A DNA stretch of 43,998 bases from a virus. The first letter of the stretch is position 1; each line of letters begins with the position of its first letter. The translations under genes were made by a program, and so were the position numbers. Positions 24,655 to 27,165 of the stretch are shown in pieces. The stretch lies in the IMG/VR virus record IMGVR_UViG_3300020576_007250. One strand, 5' to 3'. The notes beneath the pieces were generated by a model, which made no database searches, was not told the DNA's origin, and was given only the letters and a program-made list of their open reading frames with translations.

Positions 24655-27165
24655 TCAGTAGGTTAAACCACCATTCGTTCCGATGTAACCAGAGACACCC
24701 TTGTTAGCACAGAATCCAACAGTTTGAACCGTGGAGTTAGCCGTAATCTTCGCTGACGTTACTGACAATGGAGTGACAACCACTGTTCCCATCGCATTTG
24801 GATTGGGAAATGTAGCGCCCCAAACACCTGCAGCGCCACGAAGAGTTCCGTCTTTCAAAAAGATCGTCATCTTCTTCCATGACATCGCGACTGGATTGGG
24901 ATTCTTGAAGTAGAACTGCTTGCAGTATCCCGTTCCCCAATCAGACGTTTTTGTGGCCGAGACAACGAGCGCTGCACATCCATTAGACGTAGGTTCGCTA
25001 GTCTTGATGCCCTTGACAGTGGGACACGCGTCTTGAGCGTCAATGATGCCATCTTCGTCAGAATCTGGAGGTGGAACGTACGTACATGTTTGAGTCAAAA
25101 CTGGCGTGCCTGAACATCCAACAGGGGATGCATTGGTGACTGCTCGAATCTGAGTGTTGTTGACATCACATGTGGTCCATTCAGTGTACGTATATGAACA
25201 CGCAGGAGGAATGTACGTGCAATTCTGTGTGAGCATCGGCGCGCCGACACATCCTACCGGCGTAGAAGTTGCTGACCGGGACTGCGTGTTGTTGGTCTGA
25301 CATGTCGACCACTCTGAATACGTGAAGACGCACTGAGGAGGTGGAGTGGGCCCAGGTCCGGGCGCCATCCAACCTGCATTCAGATAAGGAAGAAGGAACG
25401 TTCGCAGATCGTACGCAGTGCCTGTCGAGTTCGCGTCATTGTCCCAGTGCTTGCCCGGTTTTTCGATGAGGGTGACTGGAAAGCCAGCAACCTTCAGTGT
25501 GTTCATCTTGGTTCGAATGTCAGCGATTGGATACGTCGTGTCTTCAGTATGTGCAAGATGTGCGACGTTGACCTTCCATACAGCTGTGTTAGCAGTTGAC
25601 ATTGCAGTGGACGAAGGGCCAGTGTTTTCAAAGAGCCCGCCGGCAAAAAGGCCTGCATTCTTGAACAATAGCTCGTAACCGATGTCGCCGCCTGATGAGT
25701 AGCCTCCGTAGAAGACCTTGCGAGGATCGATGTTGAAGTTTGTTTTCAGTTGTGCAATTGCGGACAGAACCTTTGAACCATCGGTCGCATAGCTCGACCA
25801 ACACGTCGTCTCACGGCCTCCGACGGCCAGGCTGATCCAGCTTTGATCTGTAATGTACGACACCATGTCGACGTCCCACTCGCTTTGTCCTCCGCAGCCG
25901 TGCAGCCAAACGAAGAGCTTGGTGGGAGTGTTGTGCGTGCTGTCGTAAGACTCAGGCACGTGAATCCAACTTGTCACGCCATTGACGACGATCGTCATCT
26001 TCTTGCCTTTGACGAAGGCGATCGGATTAGTGGGCTTCGTGTTCACTGTGCCCGCATCTGCGCCTGAATCTTTGCCGCTATCGACACCGCCGTCAGCCAC
26101 GGGTGAAGACAGCAAGAAAGGCGTCAACCATGCCATTTGAGGACGATCGACACCAGCTTTGGGTTCAAGAGTGAGCATGTGTTCACCCCACCATGGTCCT
26201 GCAGCCCACCAAAGCCAACCCGTGACCACATCGCTGTTGGATGATAGGTAATTCAATAGGTCGGTGACTGCACTCTTGCAGGTCAACGTGTTGGGACCAG
26301 CGACTTCACCGACCCAGACCTTCTTGCCGTTCTGGCGTGCCCAGGAAACAACTGCAGACATACGTTCTGTGCCGATCGTCGGACTAGCACACTCTGTGCC
26401 TGCACCGCTGCCGTCAGAGTCGAGGTAATTGTGAACCTCAAAGACGTAGTTGTTGCCGCTATCAACGTATTGTTTCAACGCGACAGCATTGGAGGTGCCG
26501 TACCACGTGCCATTCCAACTGCCTGCGCCGGTCCAGGCATTGCCTGGAACTGAAATTAAATTGGTCGCACTCGTAGCTCGAATGGCGACTGTCGCTGCAT
26601 TGGCCGCTGACACCCACTGTTCTGTGGGCATGTCGTGAGGCTCATTGACGAGGCCAAAGACGACTCGCGAATTTCCCTTGTACCTCGTCGCCAGCTTCGA
26701 CCAGAGGTCAGCGAAGACTGAGTTGGGAACTTCAGGCGAACCGACGACCTTATCGTAGTAACGCGCAAAGTTGTGTGGGTTCAGGACGACAGTCGAACCC
26801 TTCGATGTCGCGTAATTGACGATCGAGTCTAGGTCTGCGGCGTACACGGTCGCAAATGGACCAGATTGCGTCGGTTGCAGACGTTCCCACATGAACCCGA
26901 TGCGAAAGGTGTTCATTCCCTTACTGACGAAGTAGTCGATTTCCGCAGGCGTGGGCCAGGTGTAATCGGTTCCCTTCGTGCCGGGACGAGCGGTTCCAAA
27001 TTCAGCGCTAGCGAGGTTGACGCCTCGCATCTGCATGGGTGCAGCAGCTTTGAACGGAGGAGATTTGGGTGATTGTAATGTGCCGCATGCAATGATCATG
27101 ATCACGACAGCGAACAAAGCGATAAACGCTCTTAGTGTCTTCTTCATCCGCCAATAGAACAACAC
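24655..27165 (-). CDS. secreted multidomain lipoprotein: GH5 glycoside hydrolase + alpha/beta esterase + 2 TSP1-like Cys repeats + Asp-rich Ca-binding-like segment + C-terminal carbohydrate-binding-like domain
   Basis: signal peptide with lipobox (VIMIIAC; probable start ATG 27147); GH5 pattern RGVNL...GMNTFRIGFMWERLQP...NPHNFARYY...LVNEPHD (NEP acid/base)...VWVGEVAG (nucleophile Glu); esterase WLHGCGG and GYSSGG (GxSxG); tandem ~45-aa repeats Y(S/T)EW(S/T)TC...VGC.G.P.LTQ.CTY; DSDEDGIIDAQDACP; C-terminal W/G-rich ~100 aa. Confidence 0.7.
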   Translation of the reverse strand: MLFYWRMKKTLRAFIALFAVVIMIIACGTLQSPKSPPFKAAAPMQMRGVNLASAEFGTARPGTKGTDYTWPTPAEIDYFVSKGMNTFRIGFMWERLQPTQSGPFATVYAADLDSIVNYATSKGSTVVLNPHNFARYYDKVVGSPEVPNSVFADLWSKLATRYKGNSRVVFGLVNEPHDMPTEQWVSAANAATVAIRATSATNLISVPGNAWTGAGSWNGTWYGTSNAVALKQYVDSGNNYVFEVHNYLDSDGSGAGTECASPTIGTERMSAVVSWARQNGKKVWVGEVAGPNTLTCKSAVTDLLNYLSSNSDVVTGWLWWAAGPWWGEHMLTLEPKAGVDRPQMAWLTPFLLSSPVADGGVDSGKDSGADAGTVNTKPTNPIAFVKGKKMTIVVNGVTSWIHVPESYDSTHNTPTKLFVWLHGCGGQSEWDVDMVSYITDQSWISLAVGGRETTCWSSYATDGSKVLSAIAQLKTNFNIDPRKVFYGGYSSGGDIGYELLFKNAGLFAGGLFENTGPSSTAMSTANTAVWKVNVAHLAHTEDTTYPIADIRTKMNTLKVAGFPVTLIEKPGKHWDNDANSTGTAYDLRTFLLPYLNAGWMAPGPGPTPPPQCVFTYSEWSTCQTNNTQSRSATSTPVGCVGAPMLTQNCTYIPPACSYTYTEWTTCDVNNTQIRAVTNASPVGCSGTPVLTQTCTYVPPPDSDEDGIIDAQDACPTVKGIKTSEPTSNGCAALVVSATKTSDWGTGYCKQFYFKNPNPVAMSWKKMTIFLKDGTLRGAAGVWGATFPNPNAMGTVVVTPLSVTSAKITANSTVQTVGFCANKGVSGYIGTNGGLTY

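Follow-up and report, generated by a model that had tools for sequence, protein, structure and literature searches.

The window analysed here is a 43,998-nucleotide stretch of viral DNA (IMG/VR record IMGVR_UViG_3300020576_007250) and is a jumbo-phage contig, from a very large uncultured bacteriophage. Its minus strand contains, at 24655..27147 (-), a gene for an 830-aa precursor that starts at ATG 27147 and ends with the stop codon at 24655-24657. In the ORF listing, 24655..27165 (-) is a single ORF of 836 aa if read from an in-frame GTG; the alignment of 36 homologs begins at ATG 27147, and the GTG at 27165 is an upstream alternative without homolog support. JGI calls the identical protein (P0001) with 793 aa from Met38, so that the signal peptide is lost. 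The longer reading from the ATG was preferred because the lipoprotein-type N-terminus is conserved in the homologs. An earlier note, made from the sequence alone, had described this ORF as a multi-module secreted lipoprotein; every motif that it listed was found, and the coordinates were confirmed by translation.

The signal peptide with its lipobox (MKKTLRAFIALFAVVIMIIAC; aa 1-21, 27085..27147 (-)) is spelled MKKTLRAFIALFAVVIMIIAC21 and consists of a positive n-region (MKKTLR), an h-region (AFIALFAVVIMI) and the terminal I-A-C21, with Cys21 as the predicted lipidated residue. Cys21 is at least 90% conserved in alignment A1. The lipobox fits the pattern [LVI][ASTVI][GAS]C, and a lipoprotein-type signal was identified in 47 of 55 homologs under a strict rule and in 52 under a relaxed reading, which bears out the lipobox signal peptide of the earlier note. 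The mature protein has 16 Cys residues in domain-wise invariant pairs, amounting to up to eight candidate disulfides. Judged from these sequence features, the 830-aa protein is probably exported and lipidated. The note had also regarded the protein as a phage polysaccharide depolymerase, and what that term commonly denotes, a virion-associated tail spike or fibre enzyme that digests a capsule at adsorption, has to be considered. Glycanases and esterases are common on phage tail spikes, and the gene of one relative lies near large TIG/Laminin_G/dockerin-like proteins that are possible fibres. However, the cleavable lipoprotein signal is conserved across homologs, and the 16 paired Cys require oxidising conditions, but virions of tailed phages are put together in the cytoplasm. 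In PHROGs, the sole match was a family of unknown function (E 9e-6), with none to tail, fibre or baseplate proteins, and neither an N-terminal particle-attachment domain nor a β-helix was found with Pfam. Given the conserved lipobox and the 16 Cys with eight possible disulfides, export by the infected cell is favored over a tail-spike depolymerase, and a virion-borne enzyme appears very unlikely.

The catalytic domain of glycoside hydrolase family 5 (GH5) occupies aa 38-346 (26110..27036 (-)), with the acid/base Glu169 (26641-26643) in the motif VNE169P and the nucleophile Glu281 (26305-26307) in GE281V. Pfam PF00150 matches aa 42-316 with 179.9 bits against a cut-off of 23.5 (E 9e-53), and solved GH5 structures align over ~307 residues (PDB 5hnn, E 2e-84; 1gzj, E 1e-73); by these sequence matches, the module content of the protein is far above chance. 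E169 and E281 are in register with the NEP and GE motifs of 5hnn/4w7u, and R82, N168, E169, H239, Y241, E281 and W314 are invariant in 37 sequences. The region was assigned to GH5 and not to another TIM-barrel family, and both catalytic Glu residues aligned, so the proposal of a GH5 enzyme with an NEP acid/base and a GEV nucleophile stands.

The matched PDB entries are titled 'Cellulase' (4w7u/5hnn, which we take to be Xanthomonas Cel5A), 'EGI' (1gzj/1h1n) and 'Endoglucanase EG-II' (3qr3, presumably Trichoderma reesei Cel5A). EGI originates from Thermoascus aurantiacus, 1GZJ is the representative of GH5 subfamily 5 (GH5_5), and characterised GH5_5 enzymes are all endo-β-1,4-glucanases, EC 3.2.1.4 (PMC3526467). 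With 1gzj among its best solved relatives, the phage domain can be placed in subfamily 5 by sequence comparison. As GH5_5 enzymes are β-1,4-glucanases and not peptidoglycan or envelope hydrolases, the suggestion of a host-envelope-degrading enzyme was set aside. The phage domain aligns with these endoglucanases over its whole length, but it heads a five-module, phage-encoded lipoprotein; bacterial GH5_5 members were non-modular in the 2012 GH5 classification (PMC3526467). The closest cellular GH5 domains, 57-61% identical, belong to secreted cellulases of Myxococcales, Labilithrix and Cellvibrionaceae. A Labilithrix protein combines GH5 with a C-terminal domain in which Cys residues occur at similar positions by eye, in unaligned sequences, and a Polyangiales locus has a CBM-like match downstream of GH5.

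A low-complexity Asp/Gly/Ser/Pro linker (aa 347-372, 26032..26109 (-)), which is a gapped, variable part of alignment A1, leads to an α/β-hydrolase serine esterase (aa 373-598, 25354..26031 (-)). The nucleophile elbow GGYS484SGG conforms to G-x-S-x-G, the triad residues Ser484 (25696-25698), Asp536 (25540-25542) and His567 (25447-25449) are in canonical order, and the oxyanion residues H416-G417 belong to the motif HGCGG (416-420). The triad and the oxyanion motif are invariant in 37 homologs and align to the triad of LC-Est1C; the GxSxG esterase module (GYSSGG) read by the note is thus intact in its Ser, Asp and His. By comparison of profile A2 with the PDB, LC-Est1 is the closest solved structure (LC-Est1C, 3wyd, 8e-13), followed by a PHB-depolymerase-family esterase (8daj, 2.5e-6) and feruloyl esterases (8jh8/9j07). 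The module is filed in no named esterase family because it scores under all curated NCBIfam cut-offs (NF050058, 37.7 vs 150 bits; TIGR01840 esterase_phb, 29.1 vs 107.85 bits). Pfam Esterase_PHB PF10503 matches only 2 of 37 homologs (E 0.03), and Pfam assigns no family to the esterase group of about 150 homologs that were retrieved. On sequence grounds, it may be placed near LC-Est1 and the PHB-depolymerase/CE1 group (ESTHER Abhydrolase_5). The conserved HGCGG and a family-specific Cys418/Cys449 pair distinguish it from LC-Est1 and the Esterase_phb/FaeC families.

These neighbouring Esterase_phb/FaeC families include acetyl-xylan, feruloyl and PHB esterases, and the esterase could be a polyester hydrolase, that is, an extracellular depolymerase of the PHB/PHA, cutin or suberin type, and not a feruloyl esterase or a de-acetylase of carbohydrates. 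In that case, the C-terminal modules would bind its substrate, and GH5 would be a second activity joined to it; only the substrate is at issue in this alternative, which agrees with either of the biological roles discussed below. PHB depolymerases present an oxyanion His, then Ser, Asp and His, then a linker and a binding domain, and the phage protein has the same order. The top NCBIfam match is the catalytic domain of extracellular type-1 short-chain PHA depolymerases (E 1.5e-9), followed by TIGR01840; 8daj is among the PDB matches, and some homologs are named poly(3-hydroxybutyrate) depolymerase by JGI. Against this, the NCBIfam scores are far under the curated cut-offs, Esterase_PHB is nearly absent from the homologs, the binding module has a CBM2 fold and is not a PHB-binding domain, and the fusion to a cellulase suggests a polysaccharide substrate. 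We consider a polyester substrate improbable. For the acetyl xylan esterase AoAxeB, molecular replacement was carried out with LC-Est1 as the model (PMC12103068).

Downstream of the esterase are two four-Cys repeats (aa 606-645, 25213..25332 (-); aa 650-690, 25078..25200 (-)), delineated by a regular expression and alignment A3. Invariant in each are four Cys, a single Trp that follows Y-x-Y, and a single Q-x-R. Their predicted fold is an elongated, three-stranded thrombospondin repeat (TSR), matching thrombospondin type-1/midkine domains and shared with the C-terminal domain of midkine/pleiotrophin and the TSR of Toxoplasma MIC2. The repeats have in common with the TSR superfamily the pattern C-x-Y-x-(Y/F)-x-x-W-x-x-C, then (T)Q/K-x-R, but differ in having four and not six Cys, one Trp and two Tyr in place of WxxWxxW, and one Arg in place of RxRxR; the canonical three disulfides and the layered Trp/Arg core (WxxW, RxR) are absent. 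Pfam TSP_1 does not match the 830-aa protein and reaches at best E 0.025 in homologs. PTN_MK_C gives 13.2 bits in the phage protein against a cut-off of 25.3, which multi-copy relatives pass with 46 bits. Of the earlier description as TSP1-like, the two Cys repeats and the TSR fold (as predicted) were retained, but the repeats are a reduced four-Cys form that fails Pfam TSP_1 and resemble midkine/pleiotrophin and MIC2 more than canonical TSP1. The idea of unusual eukaryote-like adhesion repeats was not upheld: the repeat occurs in 1,684 protein clusters from public genomes and metagenomes, and the eight top matches scanned against Pfam have bacterial-type partners (pilin-like domains, cytochromes, β-helix glycanases).

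The Asp-rich segment next to the repeats, also recorded in the note, was identified as a thrombospondin type-3 calcium-binding motif, DSDEDGIIDAQDACP (aa 695-709, 25021..25065 (-); Pfam TSP_3, E 0.019). It fits D-x-D-x-D-G-x-x-D-x-x-D-x-C-P and is present in a single copy scoring 15.1 bits against a TSP_3 cut-off of 25; 22 of 37 homologs match, the best at 2.6e-4.

The C-terminal region (aa 722-830, 24658..24984 (-)) has the fold of a family 2 carbohydrate-binding module (CBM2), as indicated by an AF2 model (pLDDT 96), Foldseek and profile A4. Foldseek matched the AF2 model to 3ndy_E (E 3.6e-5, TM 0.66, probability 1.0) as well as to 2rtt, 6qfs, 1exg and 6f7e, and profile A4 matched 2rtt (1.4e-3) and 3ndy_E (2.8e-3) in the PDB. 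In common with the CBM2 of Cellulomonas fimi (1exg), endoglucanase D (3ndy_E) and the chitin-binding module of Streptomyces Chi18aC (2rtt), the tail is a ~105-residue β-sandwich (TM 0.57-0.66), with which the DWGTG and xWxA aromatic strands align. In contrast, its disulfide is internal (Cys742-Cys813, both invariant), whereas that of CBM2 joins the termini. Pfam CBM_2 does not match the 830-aa protein and matches 5 of 37 homologs, at best with 1.5e-5. Trp737, Trp757 and Trp776 are present, and W737 and W776 align to binding-face positions of CBM2, making two of the three canonical surface aromatics; the third position is non-aromatic in the phage protein and Trp in some homologs. The W/G-rich, carbohydrate-binding-like tail of the note is thus a divergent CBM2 fold.

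The phage or mobile-element setting that the note had assumed is supported by the window and by the relatives. The window has many short, tightly packed ORFs, a phage-like organisation, encodes a phage GroEL, a NinI-like phosphatase, a Gp23-like fragment and T4_Y16D, and is syntenic with L081. More than 70 homologous GH5-esterase fusions were found in metagenomes. The neighbourhoods examined were those of five proteins and of viral contigs in IMG/VR (27-428 kb), and all are phage-like; seven viral contigs in IMG/VR carry such homologs. Genes adjoining the homologs encode DnaE (some with inteins), ThyX, TubZ, UvsW and RNA ligase on contigs of 77-431 kb. It might be argued that the window is not viral, and that the protein is a secreted cellulase of the ordinary kind, from a bacterium or from a large non-phage element binned as phage: most window ORFs lack annotation, a terminase and a complete capsid gene are both absent within the 44 kb, and megablast against 50,697 phage records gave no match. 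Apart from the phage-type genes, gene packing and synteny of the window, this is contradicted by the relatives beside DnaE, ThyX, TubZ, UvsW and Dam on 260-431 kb contigs and on IMG/VR viral contigs, and by the esterase or repeat modules being found in none of 80 bacterial genome loci. A non-viral origin is extremely unlikely.

We therefore regard a phage-borne, host-exported, bifunctional carbohydrate-active lipoprotein as a highly probable molecular description. The domain reading and phage context of the earlier note are retained in it, while its repeat type, the eukaryote-like character of the repeats and the depolymerase reading are not. Viral CAZyme auxiliary genes are recognised by a viral setting, cellular homologs and intact catalytic residues, and all three were observed here, the cellular GH5 homologs being 57-61% identical.

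What was observed comprises the identified domains, catalytic residues that are intact, a lipoprotein signal conserved among homologs and phage-like surroundings of the examined relatives; export, lipidation, the substrates and any gain for the phage are inferred. Most probably, the protein is an auxiliary cell-surface enzyme acting on esterified β-1,4-glucan. In the infected cell, the precursor would pass the Sec pathway, and the host lipoprotein machinery would lipidate Cys21 and cleave the precursor. In the oxidising envelope, the protein would fold and form up to eight disulfides, and its mature form would remain tethered to the cell envelope. The CBM2-fold module may anchor it on insoluble β-glucan, and the two TSR-like repeats, which are rigid, may together with the Ca-binding type-3 motif form a spacer or an extra glycan-binding stalk. 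The Ser-Asp-His esterase would strip ester substituents (acetyl or feruloyl type) or cleave a polyester, and GH5_5 would cleave the β-1,4-glucan backbone by a retaining mechanism using Glu169 and Glu281. Cellulose-type breakdown at the surface, sustained through a long infection, could feed the host and support phage production. Such a lipoprotein with a nutritional auxiliary role is the best explanation of the locus, one that we hold with about even confidence; the nutritional role itself, as an auxiliary enzyme of a jumbo-phage clade, we put slightly short of even.

The same machine could instead clear the host's own esterified β-glucan coat (an acetylated cellulose-type biofilm matrix, sheath or capsule), freeing progeny from the matrix and/or destroying a polysaccharide receptor, so that superinfection would be excluded and released virions would be protected from cell debris. 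Receptor-destroying enzymes and the T5 lipoprotein Llp are analogues. The gene recurs broadly in related contigs (41-65% identical), at loci of 34 to 56% GC, a spread wider than one would expect of a metabolic gene tied to a niche. Conservation is higher in the esterase-TSR-CBM2 core than in the GH5 module, which some relatives lack; a function in the phage life cycle fits this pattern at least as well as a nutritional one. Coat clearing is further favored by the lipid anchor, which holds the enzyme at the producing cell's own surface, by the glycosyltransferases, sugar epimerases and UDP-glucose dehydrogenase among which the relatives' gene lies, and by the GT2 encoded in the window. Conversely, bacterial cellulose operons normally employ GH8 and not GH5_5 enzymes, the nearest cellular homologs come from biomass degraders, and no recognisable lysis or tail module lies beside the gene within the window. 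Coat clearing is thus a possible but less probable role. A stronger version, in which an abundant uncultured jumbo-phage clade has long kept the lipoprotein as a tool of its life cycle, surface-anchored, coat-stripping or receptor-destroying and not nutritional, is unlikely. If true, removal of an esterified cellulose-like layer would let progeny escape and block superinfection, the hosts would be bacteria encased in an esterified cellulose-like glucan, and CAZyme modules with a prokaryotic TSR-like stalk would constitute a new phage exit or exclusion device.

Taken as a glucan-degrading auxiliary lipoprotein, the phage protein resembles bifunctional modular plant-cell-wall enzymes that combine a glycanase, a carbohydrate esterase and a CBM, such as Clostridium thermocellum CtCel5C-CE2. 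In both, a single polypeptide carries a GH5 endoglucanase together with a serine esterase and has a cellulose-targeting function. Unlike the SGNH-type CE2, the phage esterase is an α/β-hydrolase, and the phage protein has no dockerin but TSR-like and TSP3 spacers, and is a phage-encoded lipoprotein. Glycoside hydrolase auxiliary genes of soil and sediment viruses include a permafrost viral GH5 endomannanase and a soil viral GH75 chitosanase (PMC9485262); one viral GH5 has been demonstrated to be active, and cellulase-type families are considered the better-supported candidates for viral auxiliary metabolic genes (bioRxiv 10.1101/2024.12.20.629349). They share with the phage lipoprotein a host-derived polysaccharide hydrolase with intact catalytic residues on a viral genome. 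The phage lipoprotein differs in GH5 subfamily and activity, in its multi-module organisation with an esterase, in its conserved export signal, and in being recurrent on jumbo-phage-like contigs and not sporadic.

Virus-borne carbohydrate enzymes are already known, and the 830-aa lipoprotein is a variant among them. Virus-encoded polysaccharide hydrolases are invoked to argue that phages steer carbon turnover; to our knowledge, few exceed a single catalytic domain on a short contig. The enzyme described here is complete, with five modules and an export signal conserved among homologs, and its examined relatives are all on jumbo-phage-like contigs, an architecture and context that make it a clean subject for biochemical work. 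It also offers a way to ask if genes of this type nourish the host or work for the phage's own entry and exit and, once the hosts are identified, should reveal whether they eat or wear cellulose. With it, the modules attached to cellulases come to include an uncharacterised esterase family and a TSR-like repeat that is widespread in prokaryotes. As a separate observation, the jumbo-phage clade also encodes a homolog of the major vault protein.

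The cellulase-esterase gene joins a domain of GH5 subfamily 5 (GH5_5), an esterase of an unclassified family, a prokaryotic pair resembling thrombospondin type-1 repeats (TSRs), a thrombospondin type-3 (TSP3) motif and a CBM2-like module. A relative of each module, and the idea of a virus-encoded GH5, were known already; this combination, its conserved lipoprotein signal and its recurrence on jumbo-phage-like contigs are new.

The ORF listing gives a single long ORF on the minus strand (24655–27165), 836 aa when counted from a GTG codon. The alignment with 36 homologs (37 sequences in all) starts at the ATG at 27147, which yields an 830-aa precursor. 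Re-translation confirmed the coordinates, and the 830-aa protein was present with all the motifs that the earlier note had quoted. The JGI call for the identical protein is 793 aa long and begins at Met38, so that the signal peptide was missed. In this peptide (aa 1–21, minus strand; MKKTLRAFIALFAVVIMIIAC), a charged n-region precedes a hydrophobic core of 13 residues, and the lipobox closes with Cys21, which is conserved in at least 90% of the alignment. A strict lipoprotein-signal rule was passed by 47 of the 55 GH5-esterase homologs with complete N-termini, and by our own reading of the N-termini five of the eight failures carry [G/A/S]-Cys closing the hydrophobic stretch. The mature protein contains 16 Cys in domain-wise pairs, the majority invariant, and such pairing requires an oxidising compartment. 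The signal peptide and the predicted disulfides, together with the absence of similarity to tail proteins, make a tail-spike depolymerase, one way of reading the phage polysaccharide depolymerase proposed earlier, highly unlikely. A hairpin at 24603–24633 (minus strand; 14-bp stem with 7 G-C pairs, T-rich tail) begins 22 nt past the stop codon and overlaps the GTG codon that starts the following ORF. From its sequence it may be a terminator; in a promoter and terminator scan of the window, the site count was not above the shuffled expectation.

The GH5 domain (aa 38–346, minus strand; Pfam PF00150, E 9e-53) matched the solved cellulases 5hnn/4w7u at E 2e-84 and the Thermoascus aurantiacus enzyme 1gzj/1h1n at 1e-73, and endoglucanase EG-II (3qr3) was also matched. 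In the PDB alignments, VNE169P falls on the NEP motif, and GE281V on GEF, the motif of the nucleophile; N168, E169, E281, R82, H239, Y241 and W314 are invariant across the 37 sequences. With these matches, and with both Glu aligned and invariant, the barrel is that of a GH5 enzyme with its catalytic Glu pair, as had been assigned. By similarity to 1gzj the domain is assigned to GH5_5. 1GZJ is the GH5_5 representative in the GH5 classification, where all characterised GH5_5 enzymes are endo-β-1,4-glucanases and the bacterial members were non-modular when the classification was made (PMC3526467). Because GH5_5 is monospecific for β-1,4-glucan, a peptidoglycan or 'envelope' hydrolase was rejected, and the host-envelope-degrading enzyme first suggested falls with it. 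A variable Asp/Gly/Ser/Pro linker (aa 347–372, minus strand) follows the domain.

The esterase (aa 373–598, minus strand) is an α/β-hydrolase with invariant H416-G417 (HGCGG), S484 (GGYSSGG), D536 and H567, and thus contains the GxSxG module expected from the GYSSGG motif. When a 16-sequence esterase profile was compared with the PDB, LC-Est1C (3wyd) was matched at 8e-13 with the triad aligned and the PHB-depolymerase-family esterase 8daj at 2.5e-6, along with carboxylesterases and feruloyl esterases. LC-Est1 belongs to ESTHER Abhydrolase_5, listed in one classification table with acetyl-xylan, feruloyl and PHB esterase families (PMC12103068). We describe the domain as probably working like a CE1/PHB-depolymerase-type serine esterase; that its substrate is a polyester appears improbable. 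Scores against the NCBIfam and Pfam esterase families were all far under the cut-offs, and the domain is therefore not filed in any named family. A second database search returned ~150 esterase homologs, many of them stand-alone at 300–450 aa; two of the ~150 carry bacterial names (Polyangiaceae and Solirubrobacteraceae), and the precomputed Pfam annotation shows no esterase-type domain in any stand-alone esterase among those listed.

Two copies of a 40-residue repeat (aa 606–645 and 650–690; window 25078–25332, minus strand) follow the esterase. The unit reads C-x-[YFW]-x-Y-[ST]-x-W-x-x-C-x5-Q-x-R-x6-P-x2-C-x7-Q-x-C, with nine positions invariant among 57 units from 43 proteins. The repeat profile matched just three PDB entries, pleiotrophin, the Toxoplasma MIC2 TSR and midkine (E 0.4–1), and among the 37 homologs Pfam PTN_MK_C was found in 10 (best 1.5e-4) and TSP_1 in two. 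This sequence evidence for kinship with TSRs is weak but consistent. The structural evidence, drawn from an AlphaFold model (pLDDT 89), is clearer, and in a Foldseek search with the model the ranking agrees with a TSR whereas the significance does not. With four Cys and a single Trp and Arg, the unit is a reduced TSR. Thus, of the TSP1-like Cys repeats described earlier, the two Cys repeats and the TSR-like fold stand, and the canonical TSP1 does not. Among 1.84 billion proteins the repeat profile matched 1,684 cluster representatives at E ≤ 1e-3, 800 of them below 1e-10. Up to 14 copies occur in tandem in one protein (proteins P0193–P0341 are among the set), and the multi-copy proteins exceed the Pfam PTN_MK_C gathering score. 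In eight top matches, LVIVD repeats with a T4SS-pilin-like N-terminus, GH141/β-helix/fn3, cytochrome b5, cytochrome c and NosD are among the partners. By its profile matches, this TSR-like module is widespread among proteins of public genomes and metagenomes, and Pfam covers it only marginally, through PTN_MK_C. A recent eukaryotic origin was rejected on account of this spread, and the repeats are not the unusual eukaryote-like elements that they had seemed.

The consensus of the calcium-binding TSP3 motif is D-x-D-x-D-G-x-x-D-x-x-D-x-C-P. The Asp-rich segment pointed out in the earlier note fits it (aa 695–709, minus strand; DSDEDGIIDAQDACP), and Pfam TSP_3 was matched in 22 of the 37 homologs. 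The C-terminal domain (aa 722–830, minus strand; model pLDDT 96), described as a W/G-rich, carbohydrate-binding-like tail, has a CBM2 fold in its model. The top Foldseek match of its model was the endoglucanase D CBM2 (3ndy_E, E 3.6e-5, TM 0.66), followed by Chi18aC (2rtt), the Cellulomonas fimi cellulose-binding domain (1exg/6qfs) and the ScLPMO10C CBM2 (6f7e); its sequence profile found the same CBM2 structures at ~1e-3. Compared with CBM2, two binding-face Trp of the C-terminal domain align, whereas the third is absent and the Cys pair lies elsewhere.

More than 70 GH5-esterase fusions, 41–65% identical, were found in a search of 5.8 billion proteins. The neighbourhoods fetched for five proteins were all jumbo-phage-like (contigs of 77–431 kb), and IMG/VR holds seven viral contigs with relatives (27–428 kb). 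Genes near the relatives encode DnaE (some with inteins), ThyX, thymidylate kinase, TubZ tubulin, UvsW helicase, Dam methylase, RNA ligase, ClpP and a papain-like peptidase. Inteins lie within DnaE (DNA polymerase III alpha) and within a helicase (related contigs L082, 16315–21825, and L088, 13471–16230), and a papain-family C1 peptidase gene adjoins the cellulase-esterase gene on the same two contigs. Synteny with the related locus L081 covers the cellulase, proteins of ~106 aa and ~218 aa and a vault-like protein. When the 10 kb surrounding the gene were compared by megablast with 50,697 phage records, nothing matched, and tblastn with the protein as query gave two weak GH5-only matches in this collection, to a faecal phage contig and the Xanthomonas jumbo phage LucasX; the phage clade is thus absent from INPHARED. 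A literature search on jumbo phages and GH5 or endoglucanase found nothing specific.

In 185,579 bacterial and archaeal species genomes, the GH5 module alone was matched, best in Myxococcales and Labilithrix (60–61%) and Cellvibrionaceae (57–58%). By tblastn, none of 80 fetched bacterial loci contained the esterase or the repeats, and a single CBM-like match was found, in one Polyangiales locus. A Labilithrix protein combines GH5 with a C-terminal domain in which Cys occupy similar positions, judged by eye. The esterase-to-CBM2 core is 55–75% identical across the family, which has two GH5 types, ~70% and ~45% identical to that of the window. GH5 is absent in the homologs P0044, P0054, P0069 and P0073 and at the related loci L093, L094 and L096; L093 and L094 encode esterase, TSR-like repeats, TSP3 motif and CBM2, and L096 encodes esterase and CBM. 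These viral contigs are 116–380 kb long, and the GH5-less gene has no GH5 gene within 6 kb of it. Such comparison of sequences indicates that modules were probably swapped around an esterase core that stayed conserved, and bacterial modules seem to have been assembled into a mosaic protein and kept in a phage lineage.

The comparisons show the identity of the modules, catalytic residues that are intact and conserved, a conserved signal of the lipoprotein type and phage-like surroundings; export, substrates and benefit to the phage we infer as follows. Sec would export the precursor, lipidation of Cys21 would tether the protein on the envelope of the infected cell, and folding would proceed with disulfides and bound calcium. 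The CBM2 module would dock on insoluble glucan, with the TSR-like pair and type-3 motif as a stiff, perhaps glycan-binding stalk; the esterase would strip ester groups, and GH5_5 would cut the β-1,4 backbone by retaining double displacement via Glu169 and Glu281. Tentatively, and at a little short of an even chance, we favour an auxiliary metabolic role, in which cellulose-type material is broken down at the cell surface and sustains the long jumbo-phage infection. The architecture and the nearest cellular homologs, both typical of biomass degraders, argue for it, as do the standing of cellulase-type viral genes as the better-supported class of auxiliary metabolic genes and the activity shown for a viral GH5. 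The main rival, which we consider less probable, is that the same chemistry strips the host of its own coat of esterified glucan, to allow egress or to destroy the receptor. It draws on the retention of the gene on related contigs of very different GC (34 to 56% at related loci), the better conservation of the esterase-CBM2 core than of GH5, the lipid anchor, which holds the enzyme on the surface of the producing cell, and the sugar-nucleotide and glycosyltransferase genes that neighbour the relatives.

The window has dense short ORFs, mostly without annotation; few have a recognisable Shine-Dalgarno motif, and a tRNA scan of the window found none. On the plus strand lie a TANGO2-family protein (845–1618; Pfam PF05742, E 1.4e-31), a mainly eukaryotic family, and a phage-type GroEL (4243–5985; phrog_5725, E 1e-147) with an AAA ATPase upstream (2264–3691). 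A NinI-like phosphatase is also encoded. A Gly_rich_2 protein, with a weak PHROG match to tail-fibre assembly, and the adjoining family-2 glycosyltransferase (13554–15326, plus strand; E 5e-13 and 8.5e-11) may form a virion or host-surface glycosylation module. On the minus strand, a 243-aa ORF (16514–17245) is Gp23-like, its match limited to the N-terminal 45 residues of the Gp23 capsid protein (E 2.5e-7), and a 105-aa ORF (28546–28863) has a T4_Y16D domain, from the precomputed Pfam annotation of the related locus L097.

An 897-aa major vault protein (MVP) homolog (20028–22721, minus strand; MVP_shoulder E 2.3e-30, Vault_3, Vault, Band_7) may be more surprising than the cellulase-esterase gene. 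Viral MVPs have been reported once only, in gut phages (bioRxiv 10.1101/2023.11.10.566534), and bacterial MVPs with band-7 in Myxococcales and Cytophagales (bioRxiv 10.1101/872010). The homolog shares 60–84% identity with more than 100 metagenomic proteins on contigs of up to 350 kb, and may be a hallmark protein of the phage clade. Contigs sized 345630, 163534, 33376 and 49328 are common to the cellulase and vault searches, which suggests that several vault-bearing and cellulase-bearing contigs are the same ones. GC along the window (1–43998) ranges from 0.44 to 0.565, and the GC-rich stretches hold the vault gene (~0.545) and the cellulase-esterase gene (0.53, with 0.55 in its GH5 part), a pattern compatible with acquisition from higher-GC donors.
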